From IMG/VR virus record IMGVR_UViG_3300045988_046105, positions 1 to 29,037 of that record: 29,037 nucleotides of DNA. One strand, written 5' to 3'. The DNA is from a virus (Duplodnaviria; Heunggongvirae; Uroviricota; Caudoviricetes). The notes beneath the pieces were generated by a model. The model searched no databases. It was not told where the DNA came from and worked only from the letters and a program-made list of their open reading frames with translations. Made by a program: the position numbers and the translations under genes. Positions within the stretch are counted from its first letter, which is position 1; the number at the start of each line of letters is the position of its first letter. Shown one piece after another: positions 21,904-28,874 of the stretch.

Positions 21904-22596
21904 TCAGAAGAACCCTGCTTTGTCGTTGATGTACTCCGCGTGCGTCTGGATATCACGCAGGCATTTGCTCACACCAACGATGTAGCAGAACATGGTGGTC
22001 AGCTCCGCCGCCGCGCCCGATACATCGTGCCCGTCTTCCTGTAACTGGTTCAGCAGATTCATCAGCAGTGAGTTTTCCGTCAGGCCGAGAACACCAGACG
22101 GCGAGTGAATCAGGCTGCGGTAGCCGGGCTTCAGTGGGGCGCTGTAGGTTTTGTTCTCTATCTTCATTGCCTGCATCACTGCTGATGCTGTGGCGTTGGC
22201 TACCTGGTCGGCAACCATCTTTATGCGTTCTTCCTGCGGGAGCGAGTTTTTAATGTAACTTCCGGTGCGGCGGATCTGAGGAAGAACCTCACCTGTAACC
22301 CATTCAAGAAATCTGAATGCTCTCGTTCCCTCAGTCATTGCCTCTTTGCAACGCAGAATAAGGATGTAGAGACCTGATTCTGAAACGATGGATAGTTCTT
22401 GTATTCCACCAGGGGTCTGTATTGAATACAGCCCCTTTTTGTTCCAGCCTTTTTTATCAAGTTTTCTCGCTTGTGTAACATCAATATTCAAAGCATTGCA
22501 CACATCTTTGGTGACAAACCAAGGTTCTCCGTCAATCATGAACATACGGATCTGGCAGGATGACTCAAAGGAAAAGATGGAAGGTTTGGTATTCAT
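21904..22596 (-). CDS. Bro-N domain protein with distinct ~80-aa C-terminal domain (antirepressor-like)
   Basis: ATG 22596 with AAGGTGA SD (track ORF extends to 22641 via non-ATG start). N-terminus FESSCQIRMFMIDGEPWFVTKDV...GLYILILRCKEAMTEGTRAFRFLEWVTGEVLPQIRRTG matches the Bro-N pattern (recollection); C-terminal domain is paralogous to 23743..24000. Confidence 0.75.
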   Translation of the reverse strand: MNTKPSIFSFESSCQIRMFMIDGEPWFVTKDVCNALNIDVTQARKLDKKGWNKKGLYSIQTPGGIQELSIVSESGLYILILRCKEAMTEGTRAFRFLEWVTGEVLPQIRRTGSYIKNSLPQEERIKMVADQVANATASAVMQAMKIENKTYSAPLKPGYRSLIHSPSGVLGLTENSLLMNLLNQLQEDGHDVSGAAAELTTMFCYIVGVSKCLRDIQTHAEYINDKAGFF

Positions 22597-22745
22597 GGCG
22601 ATCACCTTTGTAGTTAGGTTAATCACCACCGCTGAGACCAATCAGATGGTGGTGAACTGTGCAGAGTTGGTCTTACCGGCTACAAAGGAACCCGGCGCAC
22701 CTTTCGGTGCCCCCACACAGCCCACCATAGAATAGGTGCGCTTTA

Positions 22746-22991: not shown

Positions 22992-23720
22992 ATGGAAGTT
23001 TTCTGGATAGTTGTTGGTGTGGTTGCGGTGATTATTTACGTTATCAACCAGAACAAGACTAAGATCTCTGATCGTACGGTCGTTAATCATAACAAAACGA
23101 TAAAGACCGAAGATGGGGAGATAACGATTAATCGTACACAGGTGATAGAACACACCTCTACTCAGTTTCAAAAAACTGGAGGTAATGCGCCTAATATTTC
23201 CGCACCTCCTGCTTATGATAGTGCGGTAATCCAGACATATTATAAACAGCAGGAGTTAGCAAAAGAGAGGCAACTGATTCAGCCAAAGCCGTTTACAGCT
23301 GAGCTTCCACCTGGAGTGTCAATGCGTCCGGCATATCATGGAAGATTCCCTGGTGATGACATATCGTCTCAGTCATCTAAAAAAGCACCTCAGGCAGTAT
23401 CAGAGCCAGCAAGAATACCTTCTGTATCGCCGCCAAAAGAAGAATCAGCTAACAGAGTTTCAAGTGGTAGCAAGCAGTGCTTGCGATGCAGAATAAACCT
23501 ACCATATGAAAAATTCAGGAAATCGTCAAAAAATCCAGATGGATTGACTAAGTGGTGTGCAAGGTGTCTCGATGGCCCAAAGAATACACGCCATATGAAG
23601 TGGTGCCCAATTTGTAATGTCCGCAGAAAACGAACAAGCTTTTACCCTAATAATCAAAATGCGGATGGCTTAATGGCATGGTGCAAAACGTGCTGGGACG
23701 AGCACAAAGCGAAACGATAG
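22992..23720 (+). CDS. membrane-anchored protein with Pro-rich linker and tandem C-terminal zinc-ribbon-like repeats
   Basis: SD GAGGA 6 nt upstream; N-terminal TM helix; two repeats of C-x2-C-x17/18-(P/A)DGL-x3-WC-x2-C (CLRC...PDGLTKWCARC and CPIC...ADGLMAWCKTC). Confidence 0.6.
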   Translation: MEVFWIVVGVVAVIIYVINQNKTKISDRTVVNHNKTIKTEDGEITINRTQVIEHTSTQFQKTGGNAPNISAPPAYDSAVIQTYYKQQELAKERQLIQPKPFTAELPPGVSMRPAYHGRFPGDDISSQSSKKAPQAVSEPARIPSVSPPKEESANRVSSGSKQCLRCRINLPYEKFRKSSKNPDGLTKWCARCLDGPKNTRHMKWCPICNVRRKRTSFYPNNQNADGLMAWCKTCWDEHKAKR

Positions 23721-23744
23721 GCCGCTCTTGCGGCCTTTAAATTT
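23720..23744 (+). terminator. terminator hairpin between convergent genes
   Basis: GGCCGC-TCTT-GCGGCC followed by TTTAAATTT. Confidence 0.5.
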
Positions 23745-24000
23745 ACCGGGTTTGTTTTCGTAATTGTTCGGCACAATAGTCGAGATGTGTTTGCAGATCC
23801 CGCATAGACATCTGTGAGCTGGTGACGTAGTTAATCAGTGCAGTCAGTTCGGCAAGTGGGCCATCGACATTAAATCCATCCTTATCGAGATCCCGGAGTA
23901 ATTTCATCAAGTGCGATCCCTCCACCAGTGACCTGACGCCTCCCGGCGTGTGAATCCTTTCGGTAAATCCGTCTTCCAGTGGATAGTGATACCGCTGCAT
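23743..24000 (-). CDS. small protein (85 aa) paralogous to the C-terminal domain of the Bro-N protein; predicted SOS-inducible antirepressor-like factor
   Basis: ATG 24000 with GGAGA SD 8 nt upstream (track ORF starts further upstream at a non-ATG). Roughly 45 percent identity by eye to the Bro-N C-terminal region. LexA-box-like palindrome 22 bp upstream. Confidence 0.6.
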   Translation of the reverse strand: MQRYHYPLEDGFTERIHTPGGVRSLVEGSHLMKLLRDLDKDGFNVDGPLAELTALINYVTSSQMSMRDLQTHLDYCAEQLRKQTR

Positions 24001-24021
24001 CTTATCTTCTCCATGCAATAA

Positions 24022-24037
24022 CTGTATATTTATACAG
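24022..24037. promoter_or_regulatory. LexA (SOS) box CTGTATATTTATACAG overlapping predicted -10 of the small-gene promoter
   Basis: Matches CTGT-N8-ACAG with AT-rich spacer (consensus TACTGTATATATATACAGTA); sits on a TATAAAT -10-like element of the minus-strand promoter. Confidence 0.65.
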
Positions 24038-24075
24038 TAGCAAATAATTTGTTTGCTATCCAGCACGTTTTGCAA

Positions 24076-24092
24076 ATTACCTGAAAGGTAAT
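24076..24092. promoter_or_regulatory. operator-like palindrome ATTACC-TGAAA-GGTAAT (site S3); half-site TTTCAGGTAAT at 24132-24142
   Basis: Read directly; perfect 6-5-6 dyad between the small LexA-box gene and the tailspike gene. Confidence 0.45.
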
Positions 24093-24195
24093 ATCTATTC
24101 GTATTTACAGCCTTTTTATCCATATGTGGTTTTTCAGGTAATAGAATAACCAGATATGCGGCGCAACGGGTGCTGCGACTATCTGGAGATTTAAC

Positions 24196-26325
24196 ATGAC
24201 GGTCTCAACCGAAGTTGACCACAACGAATACACCGGTAACGGCGTTACGACATCGTTTCCGTATACTTTTCGAATTTTCAGAAAATCAGACCTGGTTGTT
24301 CAGGTGTCTGACCTGAACGGGAACGTAACAGAATTGGTCCTGGATACCGGTTATACGGTAACTGGGGCGGGCACTTATAGTGGCGGTTCTGTGGTTCTTC
24401 CGTCTCCGCTTGCTACTGGCTGGCGAATTACGATAGATCGTGTGCTTGATGTAGTGCAGGAGACAGACCTTCGCAATCAGGGAAAATTTTTCCCCGAAGT
24501 GCATGAAGATGCCTTTGACTACCTGACGATGCTGATCCAGCAATGTTTTGGGTGGTTCAGACGTGCATTGATGAAGCCCTCTCTGCTTGCAAAATATTAC
24601 GATGCAAAGCAAAACAGAATTTCTAACCTTGCAGATCCATCACTTGAGCAGGATGCTGTAAATAATCGCTCAATGCGTAATTATGTCGATGCTGCAATCG
24701 CCGGGGTTGTTGGTGGTTTTGGTTGGTTTATTCAGTATGGTTCTGGGGCTGTGTACCGAACGTTCCAGGATAAGATGAGAGACACCATTAGTGTTCGTGA
24801 TTTTGGTGCAAAAGGAGACGGCATAACAGATGATACTGTAGCAATTCAAAATGCTATTAATGCAGTACCAGAAGGGGCTATACTTGGATTTTATGGTGGT
24901 GAATTTGTTTTTGATAAGGTTGAATTGTTTAAGCCAATAACATTAGTTGGTGATGCAACGTTAATTCACAACGGATTTAGAATAAAATCTAGCAGAATCC
25001 GATCACTTTTATCTGGCGTTCAGAAATGCAAGGATTACTCCGAGTCTTCAAGAGCATTTTATTGCTATGCAAATGAAGACCAAAGAGATTATGACGATAT
25101 TCAGATTTTATTTAATAGATTTGAAGGTTTCTTTTACTCTACGGCATTTGTTGCAAAAAACTATTATTTGGAGAATGACCCTAATTCAAGAATTGTCAAA
25201 AACACAAAAGTAATAGGGTGTACATCAGTTGCTCCTGATTCTGTAAATGCCGGTCATTTTCAACATATAGGCGTTACAAATGCTGAAACATCACATAACT
25301 CAACTTATGGCGGACAAAATGCAACATCATACAACTTCATTAACCAGAATGGATTTGTAAGGATTATAGGAAATTATGACCATAACAATAGCTATGGTTC
25401 ATGTGAGCTTGAGAACTCAATGGTGAGTAACTCAGTCATATCAGGTAATACGTTTTCGTCATATTTATGGGTGGATGATACAAGTAATGTTACTATTTCT
25501 GGAAATACCGTTTCATCAAGGATCAAAGTAACATCGCAAACTGACGATGTTCATAATATAACCATATCAGCAAATACCACAAAACGGATTACTATAGAGC
25601 AATTTGGAGAATCGCCGACAGGTCTGGTATATGGTGCATTAATTTCCTGCAACACTATTACTGGCGACAGTGATGGAAGTTCAGACATTTTATGTGCGTC
25701 ACTTGTTACAGGTGAAATTTCATCAAATTATTGTCATGGATCAGAAAAAAATATATCAATTGTCCGCCTGGATTCTTCTGATATAACTGTTAGAAACAAT
25801 AAAGGAAACAAAGGATTACTTACAATAAGTAACGATGGTGGAAGGATAATTGAATATGGCAATGATTCTATGGTTCTGTCTGGAAGCATAGATAGCAGAC
25901 ATATACATAATTTATTACATCCAGACACATCGTATTTAGACCTACCGGGGAAATATCTGCACGGAACTAAATATACTGGCAGTATCCCCCCCGGTTCCAC
26001 AGGAACTGTATCACTTCAAATACCATCAGGGGCAAGCCTTGTTTTCAGGGGCGTTTCTATATGGGTTCTAATTAGAGATGTTAGCAATAACAATATATCG
26101 TCATTCAGAATTGATGGTTCATATAGAGTTGTTGGTGGAAGTGTTGGTCTTAGTTTTGCTGATGCTTATTCGAAACTCGGGGTGGATGCAAACTCTATAA
26201 CAGTGTCAAACAATAACAGCACTTCTGGCAATATCAGCATAGCAATTAAAAACACAGATTCATCAAAAACCCTTCAGGTTACTGTTATGCCGGAGGTTTC
26301 AAGCAGGTTAGGTATTGAGGAATAG
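24196..26325 (+). CDS. tailspike protein with beta-helix (pectate-lyase-like) receptor-binding/depolymerase domain
   Basis: 709 aa, SD TGGAGA; conserved-looking N-terminal module then DFGAKGDGITDDTVAIQNAI motif typical of right-handed beta-helix glycanases; C-terminal two-thirds AT-rich with Asn/Ser/Thr-rich repeats. Confidence 0.85.
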   Translation: MTVSTEVDHNEYTGNGVTTSFPYTFRIFRKSDLVVQVSDLNGNVTELVLDTGYTVTGAGTYSGGSVVLPSPLATGWRITIDRVLDVVQETDLRNQGKFFPEVHEDAFDYLTMLIQQCFGWFRRALMKPSLLAKYYDAKQNRISNLADPSLEQDAVNNRSMRNYVDAAIAGVVGGFGWFIQYGSGAVYRTFQDKMRDTISVRDFGAKGDGITDDTVAIQNAINAVPEGAILGFYGGEFVFDKVELFKPITLVGDATLIHNGFRIKSSRIRSLLSGVQKCKDYSESSRAFYCYANEDQRDYDDIQILFNRFEGFFYSTAFVAKNYYLENDPNSRIVKNTKVIGCTSVAPDSVNAGHFQHIGVTNAETSHNSTYGGQNATSYNFINQNGFVRIIGNYDHNNSYGSCELENSMVSNSVISGNTFSSYLWVDDTSNVTISGNTVSSRIKVTSQTDDVHNITISANTTKRITIEQFGESPTGLVYGALISCNTITGDSDGSSDILCASLVTGEISSNYCHGSEKNISIVRLDSSDITVRNNKGNKGLLTISNDGGRIIEYGNDSMVLSGSIDSRHIHNLLHPDTSYLDLPGKYLHGTKYTGSIPPGSTGTVSLQIPSGASLVFRGVSIWVLIRDVSNNNISSFRIDGSYRVVGGSVGLSFADAYSKLGVDANSITVSNNNSTSGNISIAIKNTDSSKTLQVTVMPEVSSRLGIEE

Positions 26326-26401
26326 CATCATATATAATTATTTTAATGTTAATGCCGTCTTCTTGTTGGCGGCTTATTTGTGAAAATCGAATGAGTTATT
26401 T

Positions 26402-26701
26402 ATGATGAATATAGAAGTTGATATAACACCAATTCTTCACGCACTTTGCGCTGTTGTCGCACAAGTTCTGGTCGGTCTTTTTACCGGAAACTGGGCTTAC
26501 GGTGCGATAGCCGGTTGTACGTTCTTCATTGCGCGTGAACACACCCAGGCAGAATATCGCTGGATAGAAAAGTTTGGGAAAGGGAAACGTATCAACATGC
26601 CGTGGTGGGGAGGTTTTGATCCGCGCGTATGGGATGTTGGAAGCCTGTTTGACTTTGTTGTTCCTGTTACTGTTTGTTTTTGTGTTTATTTCTCTATTTG
26701 A
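26402..26701 (+). CDS. small membrane protein (3 predicted TM segments)
   Basis: 99 aa, hydrophobic; weak SD; first gene after tailspike. Confidence 0.4.
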   Translation: MMNIEVDITPILHALCAVVAQVLVGLFTGNWAYGAIAGCTFFIAREHTQAEYRWIEKFGKGKRINMPWWGGFDPRVWDVGSLFDFVVPVTVCFCVYFSI

Positions 26702-26914
26702 CTGCTACCGCGCCATTTGATGGTGCGGAATTCAACTAATCCTCTATATTTTGAATCATTTCTGTACTGCAATCTCTTCAGAGTTATGTAAAAGGCAAGC
26801 CTTATTATCGACATGAAAGGAAGGGGATTGACAATACATGGGTAACAAAAAACCATAAATGGTTTATCATGCGTAATGCCTTTACTATTCAGGAGGTAGT
26901 TATGCATATAAACG

Positions 26915-27328
26915 GTGGAAAACATGTCAGCTCAACTAACCAGTGAAACTTTAAATCAGTGGCTTAGCATGAGTTCTCTGGCGGCGGTGATAGCAGGAGC
27001 TCCTCCTGAGGTTGCTTTGGGGGCTTTGGCTGGGGCGGTAATTTTTGTTACCTCTGCGGTAGAGTATCCTATTCGTCGTCGTGTACTCTTGTCGATGCTT
27101 AGCTTTCTCTGCGGCCTTCTTTTTTATAAACCAGCAGCATCAATTCTTATCGGCATAGCCAGCCTGATCCCTACCATCACGCAGGACTCTTTTGAAAAAG
27201 GGATTGTTTTCTCAGCTGGCGCATTCGTGTCAGCAATTGTTGCTGTGCGTATTGGTATATGGCTCTATCACCGTTCCGATAATCCACGCGAGTTAATTCC
27301 GGGGAGAAAAGACGATGGTAACGCATGA
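26915..27328 (+). CDS. holin-like membrane protein
   Basis: 137 aa, 3-4 predicted TM helices, charged C-terminus; two in-frame starts (GTG 26915, ATG 26924); position upstream of endolysin. Confidence 0.5.
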   Translation: MENMSAQLTSETLNQWLSMSSLAAVIAGAPPEVALGALAGAVIFVTSAVEYPIRRRVLLSMLSFLCGLLFYKPAASILIGIASLIPTITQDSFEKGIVFSAGAFVSAIVAVRIGIWLYHRSDNPRELIPGRKDDGNA

Positions 27329-27623
27329 GTTTTTTTTGCTTATCACCAATGCAGTTATTTGTACTGGCATAGCAATTCGCGTTGTCACATTCCGGCGTAA
27401 CGGCTCTCAACATCGAAGATGGGGAGGGTGGCTTGCTTATTTCCTTATTGTTGCTGCGGCCAGTATTCCTGTTCGTGTCGTCTATGCAATCTGGTTACGC
27501 ACGCCAATGGCTGTGGATTTATCTGAGGTCATTATCAACGCTGTCATGCTCGCCGCGGTTATTAAAACACGCGGTAACGTTGTTCAGATTTTCAAAATAT
27601 CGAGGTCTAAACATGGAGATTAA
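27315..27623 (+). CDS. membrane protein (second holin/antiholin-like)
   Basis: 102 aa, 3 predicted TM helices, SD GGGGAG; end overlaps endolysin start. Confidence 0.45.
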
Positions 27624-28242
27624 ACAATTCCAGCGAGCTGCTGGTATTAGCGAGTCGCTGGCCGCACGCTGGTTCTCGCATATAACTTCTGCGATGAAAG
27701 AGTTTGGTATCAGCAAAGCAGAAGATCAGGCAATGTTTATTGCTCAGGTCGGGCATGAGTCTGGGGGCTTCACCCGGTTGCAGGAGAATTTCAACTACAG
27801 CGTCAGCGGTCTGGCTAACTTTGTTCGGGCTGGGCGTCTCACTCAGGGACAGGCCAACGCATTGGGGCGACGCGCAGGCGAACCACCATTGCCACTTGAG
27901 CGCCAGAGAGCGATTGCCAATCTGGTGTACAGCAAACGCATGGGGAACAATGCCCCCGGCGATGGCTGGAATTACCGTGGCCGCGGACTTATCCAGATTA
28001 CCGGTTTGAATAACTATCGTGATTGCGGAAACGGCCTGAAAGTGGACCTGCTGGAGAATCCTGAACTGTTGGCGCAGGACGAATACGCGGCTCGTAGCGC
28101 GGCGTGGTTCTTCTCCAGCAAAGGTTGCATGAAGTATACCGGCGATATTGCACGTGTAACTCTGATTATCAATGGTGGCAGGAATGGCATCGACGACCGG
28201 CGCGCGCGGTACGTCACTGCCAGTAAGGTGCTGGCTGTATGA
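27613..28242 (+). CDS. endolysin, glycoside hydrolase family 19 (chitinase-like) type
   Basis: Internal ATG 27613 (track ORF starts upstream at 27382); motifs [12 protein letters not shown] and [15 protein letters not shown] typical of GH19-type phage endolysins (recollection). Confidence 0.8.
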
Positions 28243-28721
28243 TCTGGTCATTCGTAAAAGCATACCGTAAACAGTTGATTATCATGGCGGTGCTTGCTGT
28301 TCTGGTCATATCAGGAGTTGTTGCCTGGAATGTGCACGGCAGTCGTCAGTACGACGCTGGGTATGCACAGGCGAAAGAAGACCGCAAAACCGAAGATGAG
28401 AGAGTTCGTCAGCACTACGAACAGGAGAAATCGATCAATGAACGTGAAGCGCAGCAGAGGATCGACCAGGCGCGCAATGATGCTCTTGATGCTGCCGCTC
28501 GCGCTGGCCGGTTGCAGCAACAGCTCGTTGCCATCCGTGAGCAGCTCAGGCAGTATAACGCCACTGTCGGCGCTGGGTCGTCAGCCGCAGACACCGGAGT
28601 TTTGCTTGCCGACGTGCTCGAAAAATCTCTCGAACGAAACCGGCAACTGGCAGAATACGCTGACCGGGCAGCTGAAGCCGGAAGGGTCTGCGAAAGACAG
28701 TACGATGAACTAACCAGGTAG
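28239..28721 (+). CDS. Rz: i-spanin (Rz-like)
   Basis: ATG overlaps endolysin stop (ATGA); N-terminal TM helix then charged coiled-coil-like region; embedded +1-frame lipoprotein gene. Confidence 0.7.
28438..28713 (+). CDS. Rz1: o-spanin (Rz1-like) lipoprotein embedded in Rz in another frame
   Basis: ATG 28438 inside ORF 28294..28713 gives [26 protein letters not shown] (lipobox LAGC) followed by a Pro-rich short mature peptide. Confidence 0.6.
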   Translation: MNVKRSRGSTRRAMMLLMLPLALAGCSNSSLPSVSSSGSITPLSALGRQPQTPEFCLPTCSKNLSNETGNWQNTLTGQLKPEGSAKDSTMN

Positions 28722-28874
28722 CATGGTATTTTTCATGGTACTGTTTCCCGGTGACGGTATATAAAACGGTACGCAGAATTTATCGTTTCATAAACTTGTT
28801 TTCAGTCAATTGGTTACGAGTGCTGTAAATAATTGAGTGGGAATAATCCCCGGCGTTAGCTGAGTAAAACGAAA

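Follow-up and report, generated by a model that had tools for sequence, protein, structure and literature searches.

The gene at 24196..26325 of the window (the whole stretch of 29,037 nucleotides that was analysed) very probably encodes the only tailspike of an epsilon15-like temperate podovirus (Uetakevirus) of E. coli, with a mosaic make-up in which residues 1-197 would attach the spike to the tail through an anchor specific to this lineage and residues 198-709 would form an exchangeable unit of beta-helix plus beta-sandwich. The exchanged cassette (24786-26656) comprises the receptor-binding domain, a terminator and most of a gene for a 99-aa membrane protein, and probably passed recently between prophages of two kinds, Uetakevirus and P22-like (Lederbergvirus-type). 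The features of the region are as follows.

24196..26325, + strand: tailspike (receptor-binding protein) gene, an ORF of 709 aa with an ATG start
24196..24543, + strand: anchor part 1, particle-binding N-terminal domain, residues 1-116, GC3 0.50
24544..24786, + strand: anchor part 2, neck/linker, residues 117-197, ending ...GSGAVYRTFQDKMRDT, with homology to ZX5 and MS198-1
24786..24791, + strand: 5' recombination junction, C-ATTAG, codons T197-I198-S199, where ZX5 homology ends and P22-like homology starts
24787..25899, + strand: right-handed parallel beta-helix domain, approximately residues 198-568, GC3 0.21-0.25
24799..24837, + strand: DFGAKGDGITDDT motif of the beta-helix N-terminal cap, residues 202-214
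25378..25479, + strand: candidate active-site carboxylates D395, E404, E406, D427 and D428
25969..26322, + strand: C-terminal beta-sandwich domain, approximately residues 592-709, from the secondary structure of the predicted model
26354..26373, + strand: terminator-like hairpin and T-tract in the gap between tailspike and small ORF, part of the transferred cassette
26402..26701, + strand: gene for a 99-aa three-helix membrane protein (phiv142-3 Orf5; phrog_1443), the 3' homology arm

The gene matched tail and tailspike families of PHROG (best phrog_13893, E 4e-280) and the exact protein sequence is present in public databases. Over its whole length it is 99.8% identical in nucleotides to Orf6 of phiv142-3, also a Uetakevirus (QGF19612.1, annotated as 'putative tail fiber protein'), and to copies in 32 E. 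coli genomes. Positions 23743-28847 are 98.9% identical to phiv142-3, whose flanking genes (the Orf5 small ORF, holins and endolysin) match those of the window and which departs from it in the moron region alone, upstream of 23743. There is a single slot for a receptor-binding gene, with internal/injection genes and morons upstream and a lysis cassette downstream (two holin-family genes at 26915-27328 and 27315-27623, a GH19 endolysin and an Rz-like gene of the DUF2514 type), in synteny with phiv142-3, EC.W1-9 and ZX5. phiv142-3 Orf6 is the receptor-binding-protein subtype 'X1' of a study in Virol J 2023 (PMC10408124), a subtype found in ST648-type and APEC genomes, and tailspike modularity, phiv142-3 included, is a principle already published there; with this in print and a near-identical orf6 described, both the mosaic principle and the protein itself are already known. 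A Pfam scan at E<=1 gave PF12708 together with weak End_N_terminal and weak T7-tail matches only, with no PF09008 head-binding domain of the P22-type tailspike and no Peptidase_S74 C-terminal intramolecular chaperone, the C-terminus being modelled as a beta-sandwich. The RefSeq name 'GH28-related' was considered and set aside, as the same scan contained no GH28 profile; the NCBIfam rhamnogalacturonidase model scored 21 bits against a cut-off of 500 bits.

The two parts of the protein have different relatives. The N-terminal part matches the Uetakevirus phage ZX5 at 98% identity as far as 24791, the MS198-1 prophage at 93% as far as 24731 and, over nt 1-348, the tailspike of the epsilon15-like Salmonella phage VB_ST_E15 at 74.6% nucleotide identity. 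These ZX5, MS198-1 and epsilon15/phiV10-type tailspikes (the last at ~74%) share the anchor and its slot before the lysis cassette, whereas their C-terminal receptor-binding domains differ from that of the window; in ZX5 the C-terminus is a K1 endosialidase and the 99-aa ORF is absent. The window tailspike thereby carries the Uetakevirus genus anchor of about 200 N-terminal residues, for which the first 205 aa of the phiV10 protein have been used (PMC10408124), and many PHROG families match it at residues 1-166 or 1-206 only. Residues 1-180 match Dpo31, the solved tail-spike of the marine podovirus Carin-1 (28lx/8ck1; PMC13317679), across its D1 beta-sandwich and the beginning of its D2 coiled coil (E 7e-32), whereas the catalytic domain of Dpo31 is unrelated in sequence, and Dpo31 sheds a C-terminal D4 domain, a cleavage of which the window tailspike gives no sign. 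Among 5426 complete E. coli genomes the anchor was matched from nt 1 in 502 cases and the full length in 32 only, and in a spread sample of 60 rows 28 of 55 anchor-only matches stop at nt 582-651. The C-terminal partners of the shared anchor are annotated as endosialidase, GH28-related, SGNH/GDSL hydrolase or beta-helix proteins.

The C-terminal part, together with the 99-aa ORF that follows, is 97-99% identical in nucleotides to P22-like E. coli prophages over 24786-26656, with both boundaries identical in three independent P22-like loci. The 5' boundary overlaps the point at which ZX5 homology stops and lies at nt 591-596 of the gene (codons 197-199), just before ISVRDFGAKGDG. We found the receptor-binding domain in 37 E. 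coli genomes; five of these carry it, at 98.4-99.1% nucleotide identity, downstream of a P22-type head-binding anchor, and the protein database holds over 100 variants of 663 aa in which PF09008 precedes the same domain, plus one variant with a PF18668 anchor. These 663-aa tailspikes have the same fold and presumably the same receptor, but their anchor and neck linker (...SIRRTQHQKNAEH) are unrelated to those of the window, and the prophages that encode them are of another phage type and occupy other integration sites. In strain SCZE5 both arrangements occur on one chromosome, the Uetakevirus one at 1.42 Mb and the P22-like one, disrupted by IS1, at 1.58 Mb.

The preliminary description had proposed a conserved N-terminal module joined to an AT-rich beta-helix through horizontal exchange of the receptor-binding part, and the discordant partners, a K1 endosialidase phage for the anchor and PF09008 tailspikes for the remainder, bear this out. 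It had counted full-length homology to a single tailspike as grounds for rejection; such homology is found in phiv142-3, EC.W1-9 and the 32 E. coli genomes, but as all of these carry the same mosaic allele the mosaicism stands. The donor lineage expected from domain-wise comparison could not be named, the 97-99% copies lying in E. coli prophages only and the next relatives of the domain, at 47-62% identity, belonging to lytic coliphages and to phages of Aeromonas. Nor does low GC3 point to a specific donor, since it is common to unrelated receptor-binding domains of E. coli prophages (MS198-1 0.24, LF82 0.28). The 5' crossover would have fallen inside a conserved hinge motif, R-T-x-Q-x-K-x(4)-I-S-V-x-D-F-G-A-x-G-D-G, and the 3' crossover within the widely conserved small ORF, so that phages co-infecting or co-resident in a cell would need no more than ordinary homologous or short-homology recombination. 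Tailspike receptor-binding domains decide which strains can be infected, and an exact map of the cassette, with its two junctions in the hinge and the small ORF, should therefore help in designing phages or tailocins that target ExPEC and APEC lineages.

A pectate-lyase-like fold had been expected from the DFGAKGDGITDDT motif, and the window tailspike does have it: the motif falls in the PF12708 match (residues 198-255, E 1.3e-11) and aligns with GH55 glucanases and the Sf6 and CBA120 tailspikes in the PDB, the predicted model contains a beta-helix, and the best Foldseek match is the Sf6 endorhamnosidase. A low-confidence loop (residues 579-589) precedes the C-terminal beta-sandwich, which is a separable module, since homologues of the Aeromonas LAh type and of an Arthrobacter phage match the helix part only. 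In 36 homologues, the most distant about 33% identical, D395, E404, E406, D427 and D428 do not vary, and by the strand pattern of the model the 23 residues from E404/E406 to D427/D428 correspond to about one coil of the helix; a catalytic role for these carboxylates is putative. The solved beta-helix O-antigen endoglycosidases of Sf6, HK620, P22 and Det7 are 11-17% identical to the window tailspike, and their catalytic residues do not align confidently with it. Closer relatives over the whole receptor-binding domain (47-52% amino acid identity) are St11Ph5 gp66, the fBC-Eco01 tailspike and Aeromonas phage tail proteins, which are attached to other anchors (PF18668, PF03906, PF12571) in lytic phages of other genera and whose divergence means that their specificity may differ.

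The spike, as a putative trimer, would bind and probably cleave a surface polysaccharide via a groove with E404/E406/D427/D428 (and D395), bringing the short-tailed virion to the outer membrane and setting host range; the glycanase activity and the host range set through one polysaccharide that had been suggested from the sequence at the outset are thus far inferences. With regard to the nature of that polysaccharide, an O-antigen-specific endoglycosidase comparable to those of epsilon15, phiV10, Sf6 and P22 is a serious candidate, if short of probable, the mixed serogroups of its hosts then reflecting later O-antigen switching in lysogenic lineages or related O-unit backbones. The Sf6 match and the invariant Asp/Glu cluster are in keeping with it, as are the O2 hosts of phiv142-3 (DE142) and fBC-Eco01 (domain 52% identical) and the usual O-antigen specificity of Uetakevirus receptor-binding proteins (PMC10408124). 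Copies at least 95% identical, however, occur in prophages of O1, O5, O51 and O102 strains according to the serogroups given in PMC10408124, where no serogroup could be assigned and the published pipeline discarded the subtype for this inconsistency. EC.W1-9 gave spot lysis in 26 of 60 isolates of several sequence types. Resistance to St11Ph5, whose gp66 has a domain 47% identical to that of the window tailspike, is seen in mutants with a normal LPS ladder, which together with hosts that span O1, O2, O5, O51 and O102 makes a single O-antigen receptor doubtful.

The alternative that the target is a glycan common to serogroups, such as a K capsule or other exopolysaccharide, and that the domain is a lyase or a non-catalytic binder rather than a hydrolase, can be entertained tentatively. 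Against it, the acidic cluster seems closer to hydrolase sites such as those of the P22, Sf6 and HK620 tailspikes than to lyase sites. It is highly improbable that in the lysogen the gene serves mainly as a bacterial fitness factor: deletion of orf6 in DE142 is reported to lower growth in serum and in iron-limited medium as well as iutA expression, phenotypes complemented in trans (PMC7724020), but the gene has the sequence, fold and genomic position of a virion tailspike, neither an iron-binding nor a regulatory domain was found in it, and the deletion might act indirectly, for instance by altering prophage induction or changing a surface glycan.

Base composition also changes within the mosaic tailspike gene. 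By maximum likelihood the GC change point lies at nt 627 (support interval nt 384-708), where GC falls from 0.47 to 0.36 (LLR 10.8), and for GC3 alone at codon 130, with a fall from 0.51 to 0.27 (LLR 13.5). The preliminary description had noted a change in composition and codon usage, and the GC break exceeds all 500 codon shuffles of the gene (top LLR 9.2). This is the strongest within-gene break among the long ORFs compared in the window, the seven others having LLR of at most 2.8 (GC3 at most 6.1), and the lowest-GC 1.5 kb of the window (24902-26401) falls inside the tailspike gene. The position first given, about 450 nt, lies within the GC support interval, but the homology junction is sharper and further 3'; composition used alone would misplace the boundary, since the GC3 change point is at codon 130 and the homology junction at codon 197. 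Of the residues said to be abundant in the C-terminal part, Ser (6.2 to 13.4%), Ile (3.6 to 9.1%) and Asn (5.2 to 8.5%) are enriched whereas Thr is not (8.2 to 7.4%), and the repeats described are present as beta-helix coils in the protein but not as notable tandem repeats in the DNA of the gene. That the shift stems from amino-acid or structural constraint on a Ser/Asn/Ile-rich beta-helix in a vertically inherited gene, with no horizontal exchange, is scarcely credible in spite of this enrichment and of a fall in GC1 from 0.56 to 0.42, as synonymous third positions change most (0.45-0.50 to 0.26), GC2 shows no change along the gene, and the anchor differs from the receptor-binding domain in its set of relatives, the junctions being sharp and common.

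The 3' arm of the cassette is the 99-aa gene, of which about the first 255 nt travel with the receptor-binding domain up to the end of P22-like homology at 26656. In the MS198-1 Uetakevirus prophage, which has another receptor-binding domain, homology to the window resumes at 26418. The ORF had no match in Pfam, NCBIfam or PADLOC, Foldseek against viral models gave nothing informative and the literature on 'Ybl63' contained nothing relevant to it; its product may be, for example, a superinfection-exclusion or envelope-modifying moron. The family is marked by a near-invariant polar loop, AREHTQAEYRWI..FG.GKR.NMPWWGGFD.R.W. That it is a general companion of receptor-binding genes and a portable 3' homology arm, and that the receptor glycan is not serogroup specific, we consider on balance unlikely; if true, the small-ORF arm and the hinge motif would make receptor-binding domains swappable across phage families. 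Members of the family adjoin receptor-binding genes in all eight of the phage and prophage loci whose gene context was examined, which include podo-, myo- and siphovirus types, and in prophages of Escherichia, Salmonella, Aeromonas and Comamonas they lie directly 3' of that gene.

The tailspike lies in a 5 kb stretch of the window (23743-28847) that shares 98.9% identity with Escherichia phage phiv142-3, recorded as a Uetakevirus (epsilon15-like temperate podoviruses), and 98.4% with EC.W1-9, whose record gives no genus. Its counterpart in phiv142-3 is Orf6, a 'putative tail fiber protein'. PHROG profiles assign the 709-aa product as a tail or tailspike protein and an identical 709-aa sequence is already held in public databases, where its RefSeq name is 'glycosyl hydrolase family 28-related protein'. 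On its 3' side is a 99-aa ORF, along with two genes of the holin family, a GH19 endolysin and an Rz-like gene (DUF2514). Both the N-terminal anchor (aa 1-197) and synteny mark the gene as a genuine Uetakevirus tailspike, and its predicted fold places it in the beta-helix tailspike class. GH28 membership, P22 head-binding and S74-chaperone assignments were also considered and each was rejected for this protein. Published work already covers the gene, its mosaicism and the general rule of an anchor with an exchangeable domain, and the finding is correct and already known. What is new beyond the literature compared is the exact 5' and 3' junctions of the exchanged cassette (24786-26656), the co-residence of both tailspike architectures in one chromosome and a small, uncharacterised membrane-protein gene that moves with the cassette and very widely flanks receptor-binding genes.

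Features of the tailspike region (window coordinates)
21904-22641, minus strand: Bro-N antirepressor ORF
22992-23720, plus strand: 242-aa ORF in the variable moron region 5' of the tailspike
23743-24123, minus strand: short ORF just 5' of the tailspike, antirepressor C-terminal likeness, phrog_1760
24196-26325, plus strand: tailspike, 709 aa (ORF call)
26354-26373: terminator-like hairpin, intergenic
26402-26701, plus strand: 99-aa ORF (phiv142-3 Orf5, phrog_1443)

The preliminary description had placed a change in composition about 450 nt into the gene, towards AT-rich sequence with Asn/Ser/Thr/Ile-rich repeats. Maximum-likelihood change-point analysis put the break at gene nt 627, where GC falls from 0.47 to 0.36 (support interval nt 384-708; LLR 10.8). 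This value was reached in 0/500 codon shuffles (highest LLR 9.2) and seven other long window ORFs gave LLR <=2.8, so the change is real and far beyond chance. The window's lowest-GC 1.5 kb falls within the gene. The shift is mostly synonymous, with GC3 going from about 0.5 to 0.26, a moderate fall in GC1 and a flat GC2. Enrichment in the C-terminal part held for Ser, Ile and Asn but not for Thr, and the repeats correspond to beta-helix coils at the protein level but not to DNA tandem repeats, none of note being present in the gene. The DFGAKGDGITDDT motif lies at aa 202-214. Although a break at about 450 nt is inside the support interval, the two modules in fact join further downstream. Because of an AT-rich neck segment within the conserved anchor (aa 117-166, GC3 0.34) the GC3 change point falls at codon 130, and composition used alone would therefore misplace the boundary.

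Nucleotide alignment located the 5' junction at C-ATTAG, across codons T197-I198-S199, with a conserved GATTTTGG (Asp-Phe-Gly) patch beginning 12 nt downstream. The Uetakevirus ZX5, which has a K1 endosialidase as its tailspike C-terminus, is 98.2% identical to the window over 23743-24791 and next matches only from 26900. P22-like prophages of E. coli SFAD3, UID2309220041 and SCZE5, which have genes for Arc/Mnt, antirepressor and ejection proteins of gp16/gp20 type and whose tailspike has a PF09008 head-binding anchor, match 24786-26656 at 97-99% and nowhere else. With the one homology stopping at 24791 and the other starting at 24786, the proposal of a conserved N-terminal module joined to an exchanged C-terminal part (the receptor-binding domain, RBD, aa 198-709) was borne out. 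The MS198-1 Uetakevirus prophage, with yet another C-terminal domain in its tailspike, matches the window up to 24731 and again from 26418. Uetakevirus anchors end in ...RTFQDKMRDxIS and P22-type and PF18668-type fusions read ...SIRRTQHQKNAEH-ISVRDFGAKGDG at the corresponding place, placing the crossovers therefore in a weakly conserved hinge, R-T-x-Q-x-K-x(4)-I-S-V-x-D-F-G-A-x-G-D-G.

On the 3' side the P22-like homology runs past the tailspike, across the hairpin and into the 99-aa ORF, of which it covers about 255 nt. The family of this ORF occurs in 1819/5426 E. coli genomes (80-90% nt identity) and directly after a receptor-binding gene in all eight further loci with gene context examined, a count that leaves out the near-identical window, phiv142-3 and EC.W1-9. 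Phage 21 and many lambda-like isolates also encode it. The position of the RBD between two sequences recurring across phage families provides a mechanistic explanation of its swappability; ZX5 is without the 99-aa ORF, which is therefore not obligatory.

Loci of the 99-aa ORF family
MS198-1 Uetakevirus prophage: directly 3' of the receptor-binding gene
P22-like prophages of SFAD3, UID2309220041 and LF82: directly 3' of the receptor-binding gene
BL21 Qin-like lambdoid prophage: directly 3' of the receptor-binding gene
Aeromonas P2-like prophage: 3' of the tail fibre
Salmonella myovirus: flanked by a tailspike on either side
Comamonas lambda-like prophage: 3' of gpJ, with one small gene (72 aa) in between
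Members in comparison loci, each in its own coordinates: L004 6606-6905, L006 4000-4284, L007 3998-4285, L008 3998-4291, L012-L014 5001-5300

Family members are 95-101 aa long, are predicted to have three helices and share a nearly invariant polar loop, AREHTQAEYRWI..FG.GKR.NMPWWGGFD.R.W; the prophages that encode them are of podo-, myo- and siphovirus type and come from Escherichia, Salmonella, Aeromonas and Comamonas. Pfam, NCBIfam and PADLOC searches returned no match, nor was there a fold match. Upstream of the ORF a terminator-like hairpin precedes a promoter-like site, an arrangement that makes the ORF look like a moron, and the membrane protein may act in superinfection exclusion or envelope modification.

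A match starting at gene nt 1 was present in 502/5426 complete E. coli genomes and was full length in 32 alone. Of 60 hits sampled at even spacing, 55 were anchor-only, and 28 of the 55 end at nt 582-651; annotations for the parts 3' of anchor-only matches are endosialidase, GH28-related, SGNH/GDSL hydrolase or beta-helix protein. The C-terminal part was found in 37 genomes, five of which have it solely behind a P22-type anchor. Five complete E. coli genomes hold two RBD copies, and SCZE5 shows that the two types meet in one cell: its Uetakevirus gene, 99.8% identical to the window, is at 1.42 Mb and its P22-like gene, disrupted by IS1, at 1.58 Mb. A large protein database contains >100 663-aa variants joining PF09008 to the RBD and one PF18668-anchored protein, and remoter RBD relatives (46-62% identity) in coliphages and Aeromonas phages carry PF18668, PF03906/PF05662, PF12571 or PF27114 anchors. 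The RBD family is small: a threshold of E<=1e-30 gave 34 clusters from 1.84 billion representatives.

Domain comparison, suggested as a route to the donor lineage, allows none to be named. Low GC3 is common among exchangeable RBDs of E. coli prophage tailspikes (0.24-0.28 in MS198-1 and LF82), and homologous RBDs in lytic phages (0.53 in fBC-Eco01, 0.35 in St11Ph5) drift to the composition of their own genome. In Aeromonas phage P05B (L011, 1421-4039) GC3 is 0.40 in the RBD versus 0.71 in the N-terminal part, a larger break than that of the window tailspike, suggesting recent import of the same cassette family.

Pfam placed PF12708 (pectate-lyase-like) over aa 198-255 above threshold, and PDB sequence matches were limited to the cap region (GH55 glucanases, Sf6, CBA120 TSP3). 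An AlphaFold2 model built from 26 homologues (pLDDT 88.4) has a long right-handed beta-helix (~aa 198-568), a loop of low confidence and, at the C-terminus, a beta-sandwich (~aa 592-709), with the Sf6 endorhamnosidase tailspike ranked top by Foldseek (E 7.6e-11). Across 36 RBD homologues, down to about 33% identity, the acids D395, E404, E406, D427 and D428 are invariant, as are Y314, S378, Y379, N380 and N407, and in the predicted structure E404/E406 and D427/D428 are spaced by one coil. The P22, Sf6 and HK620 tailspikes have carboxylate pairs at the active site, and by analogy we infer that the RBD acids form a putative glycosidase-type site. Residues 1-180 of the window protein are homologous to parts of the solved Dpo31 spike of the marine podovirus Carin-1: the D1 beta-sandwich, which touches the virion there, and the beginning of the D2 coiled coil. 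The EC.W1-9 tailspike gene (L002, PP445227.1, 4001-6129) is 1 nt shorter and annotated as two ORFs, an 'eliminase' of 625 aa and a 47-aa ORF; either a frameshift cuts the C-terminal beta-sandwich short or the sequence is in error.

A host range set by a single polysaccharide was the weak point of the preliminary description: given the predicted fold a surface polysaccharide is the most likely target, but the published serogroups are mixed. An E. coli RBP survey placed the phiv142-3 protein in subtype 'X1' beside St11Ph5 RBP1 (gp66) with serogroup unassignable, recorded RBP copies at least 95% identical in prophages of O1, O5, O51 and O102 strains, and suggested for X1 a capsule or other shared receptor (PMC10408124). 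The phiv142-3 host is O2 (PMC7724020), that of fBC-Eco01 an O2:H1 strain (PMC9825357) and that of St11Ph5 O5ab, with an unaltered LPS ladder in resistant mutants (PMC6393563), while EC.W1-9 gave spot lysis on 26/60 clinical isolates of several sequence types (bioRxiv 10.1101/2024.06.28.601134). The fBC-Eco01 domain has 52% identity to the window RBD. Either the RBD glycan would be an O-antigen and lysogens would have switched serogroup later, or it would be shared between serogroups.

Deletion of orf6 in the lysogen reduced growth in serum and iron-limited medium and lowered iutA transcription, and orf6 was reported to promote lysogen iron acquisition and serum growth (PMC7724020). The sequence and fold of its equivalent in the window hold nothing explaining this phenotype, which is best treated as an indirect effect.

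In SCZE5 (L015, CP051222.1, 6001-9148) an insertion at L015 7509-8276 splits the P22-like RBD copy, its flanks duplicating the 9 bp of window 25833-25841, and at the insertion point the sister contig L016 contains a fragment of an IS1 transposase; the intact Uetakevirus copy is ~155 kb away. In strain XH993 IS1A lies within the RBD. Upstream of the window tailspike, the 242-aa ORF (phrog_6762, unknown function) has a hydrophobic N-terminal segment, two C-terminal CxxC zinc-ribbon-like repeats and weak matches to PHROG endonuclease VII, Lar and HNH-type profiles and to Pfam Stc1; it is kept in the MS198-1 prophage and missing from phiv142-3. The short ORF beyond it also resembles the C-terminus of the Bro-N antirepressor and appears to be an antirepressor module, truncated or duplicated, and homology to phiv142-3 (23743), EC.W1-9 (23720) and ZX5 (23743) starts at or near its 3' end.
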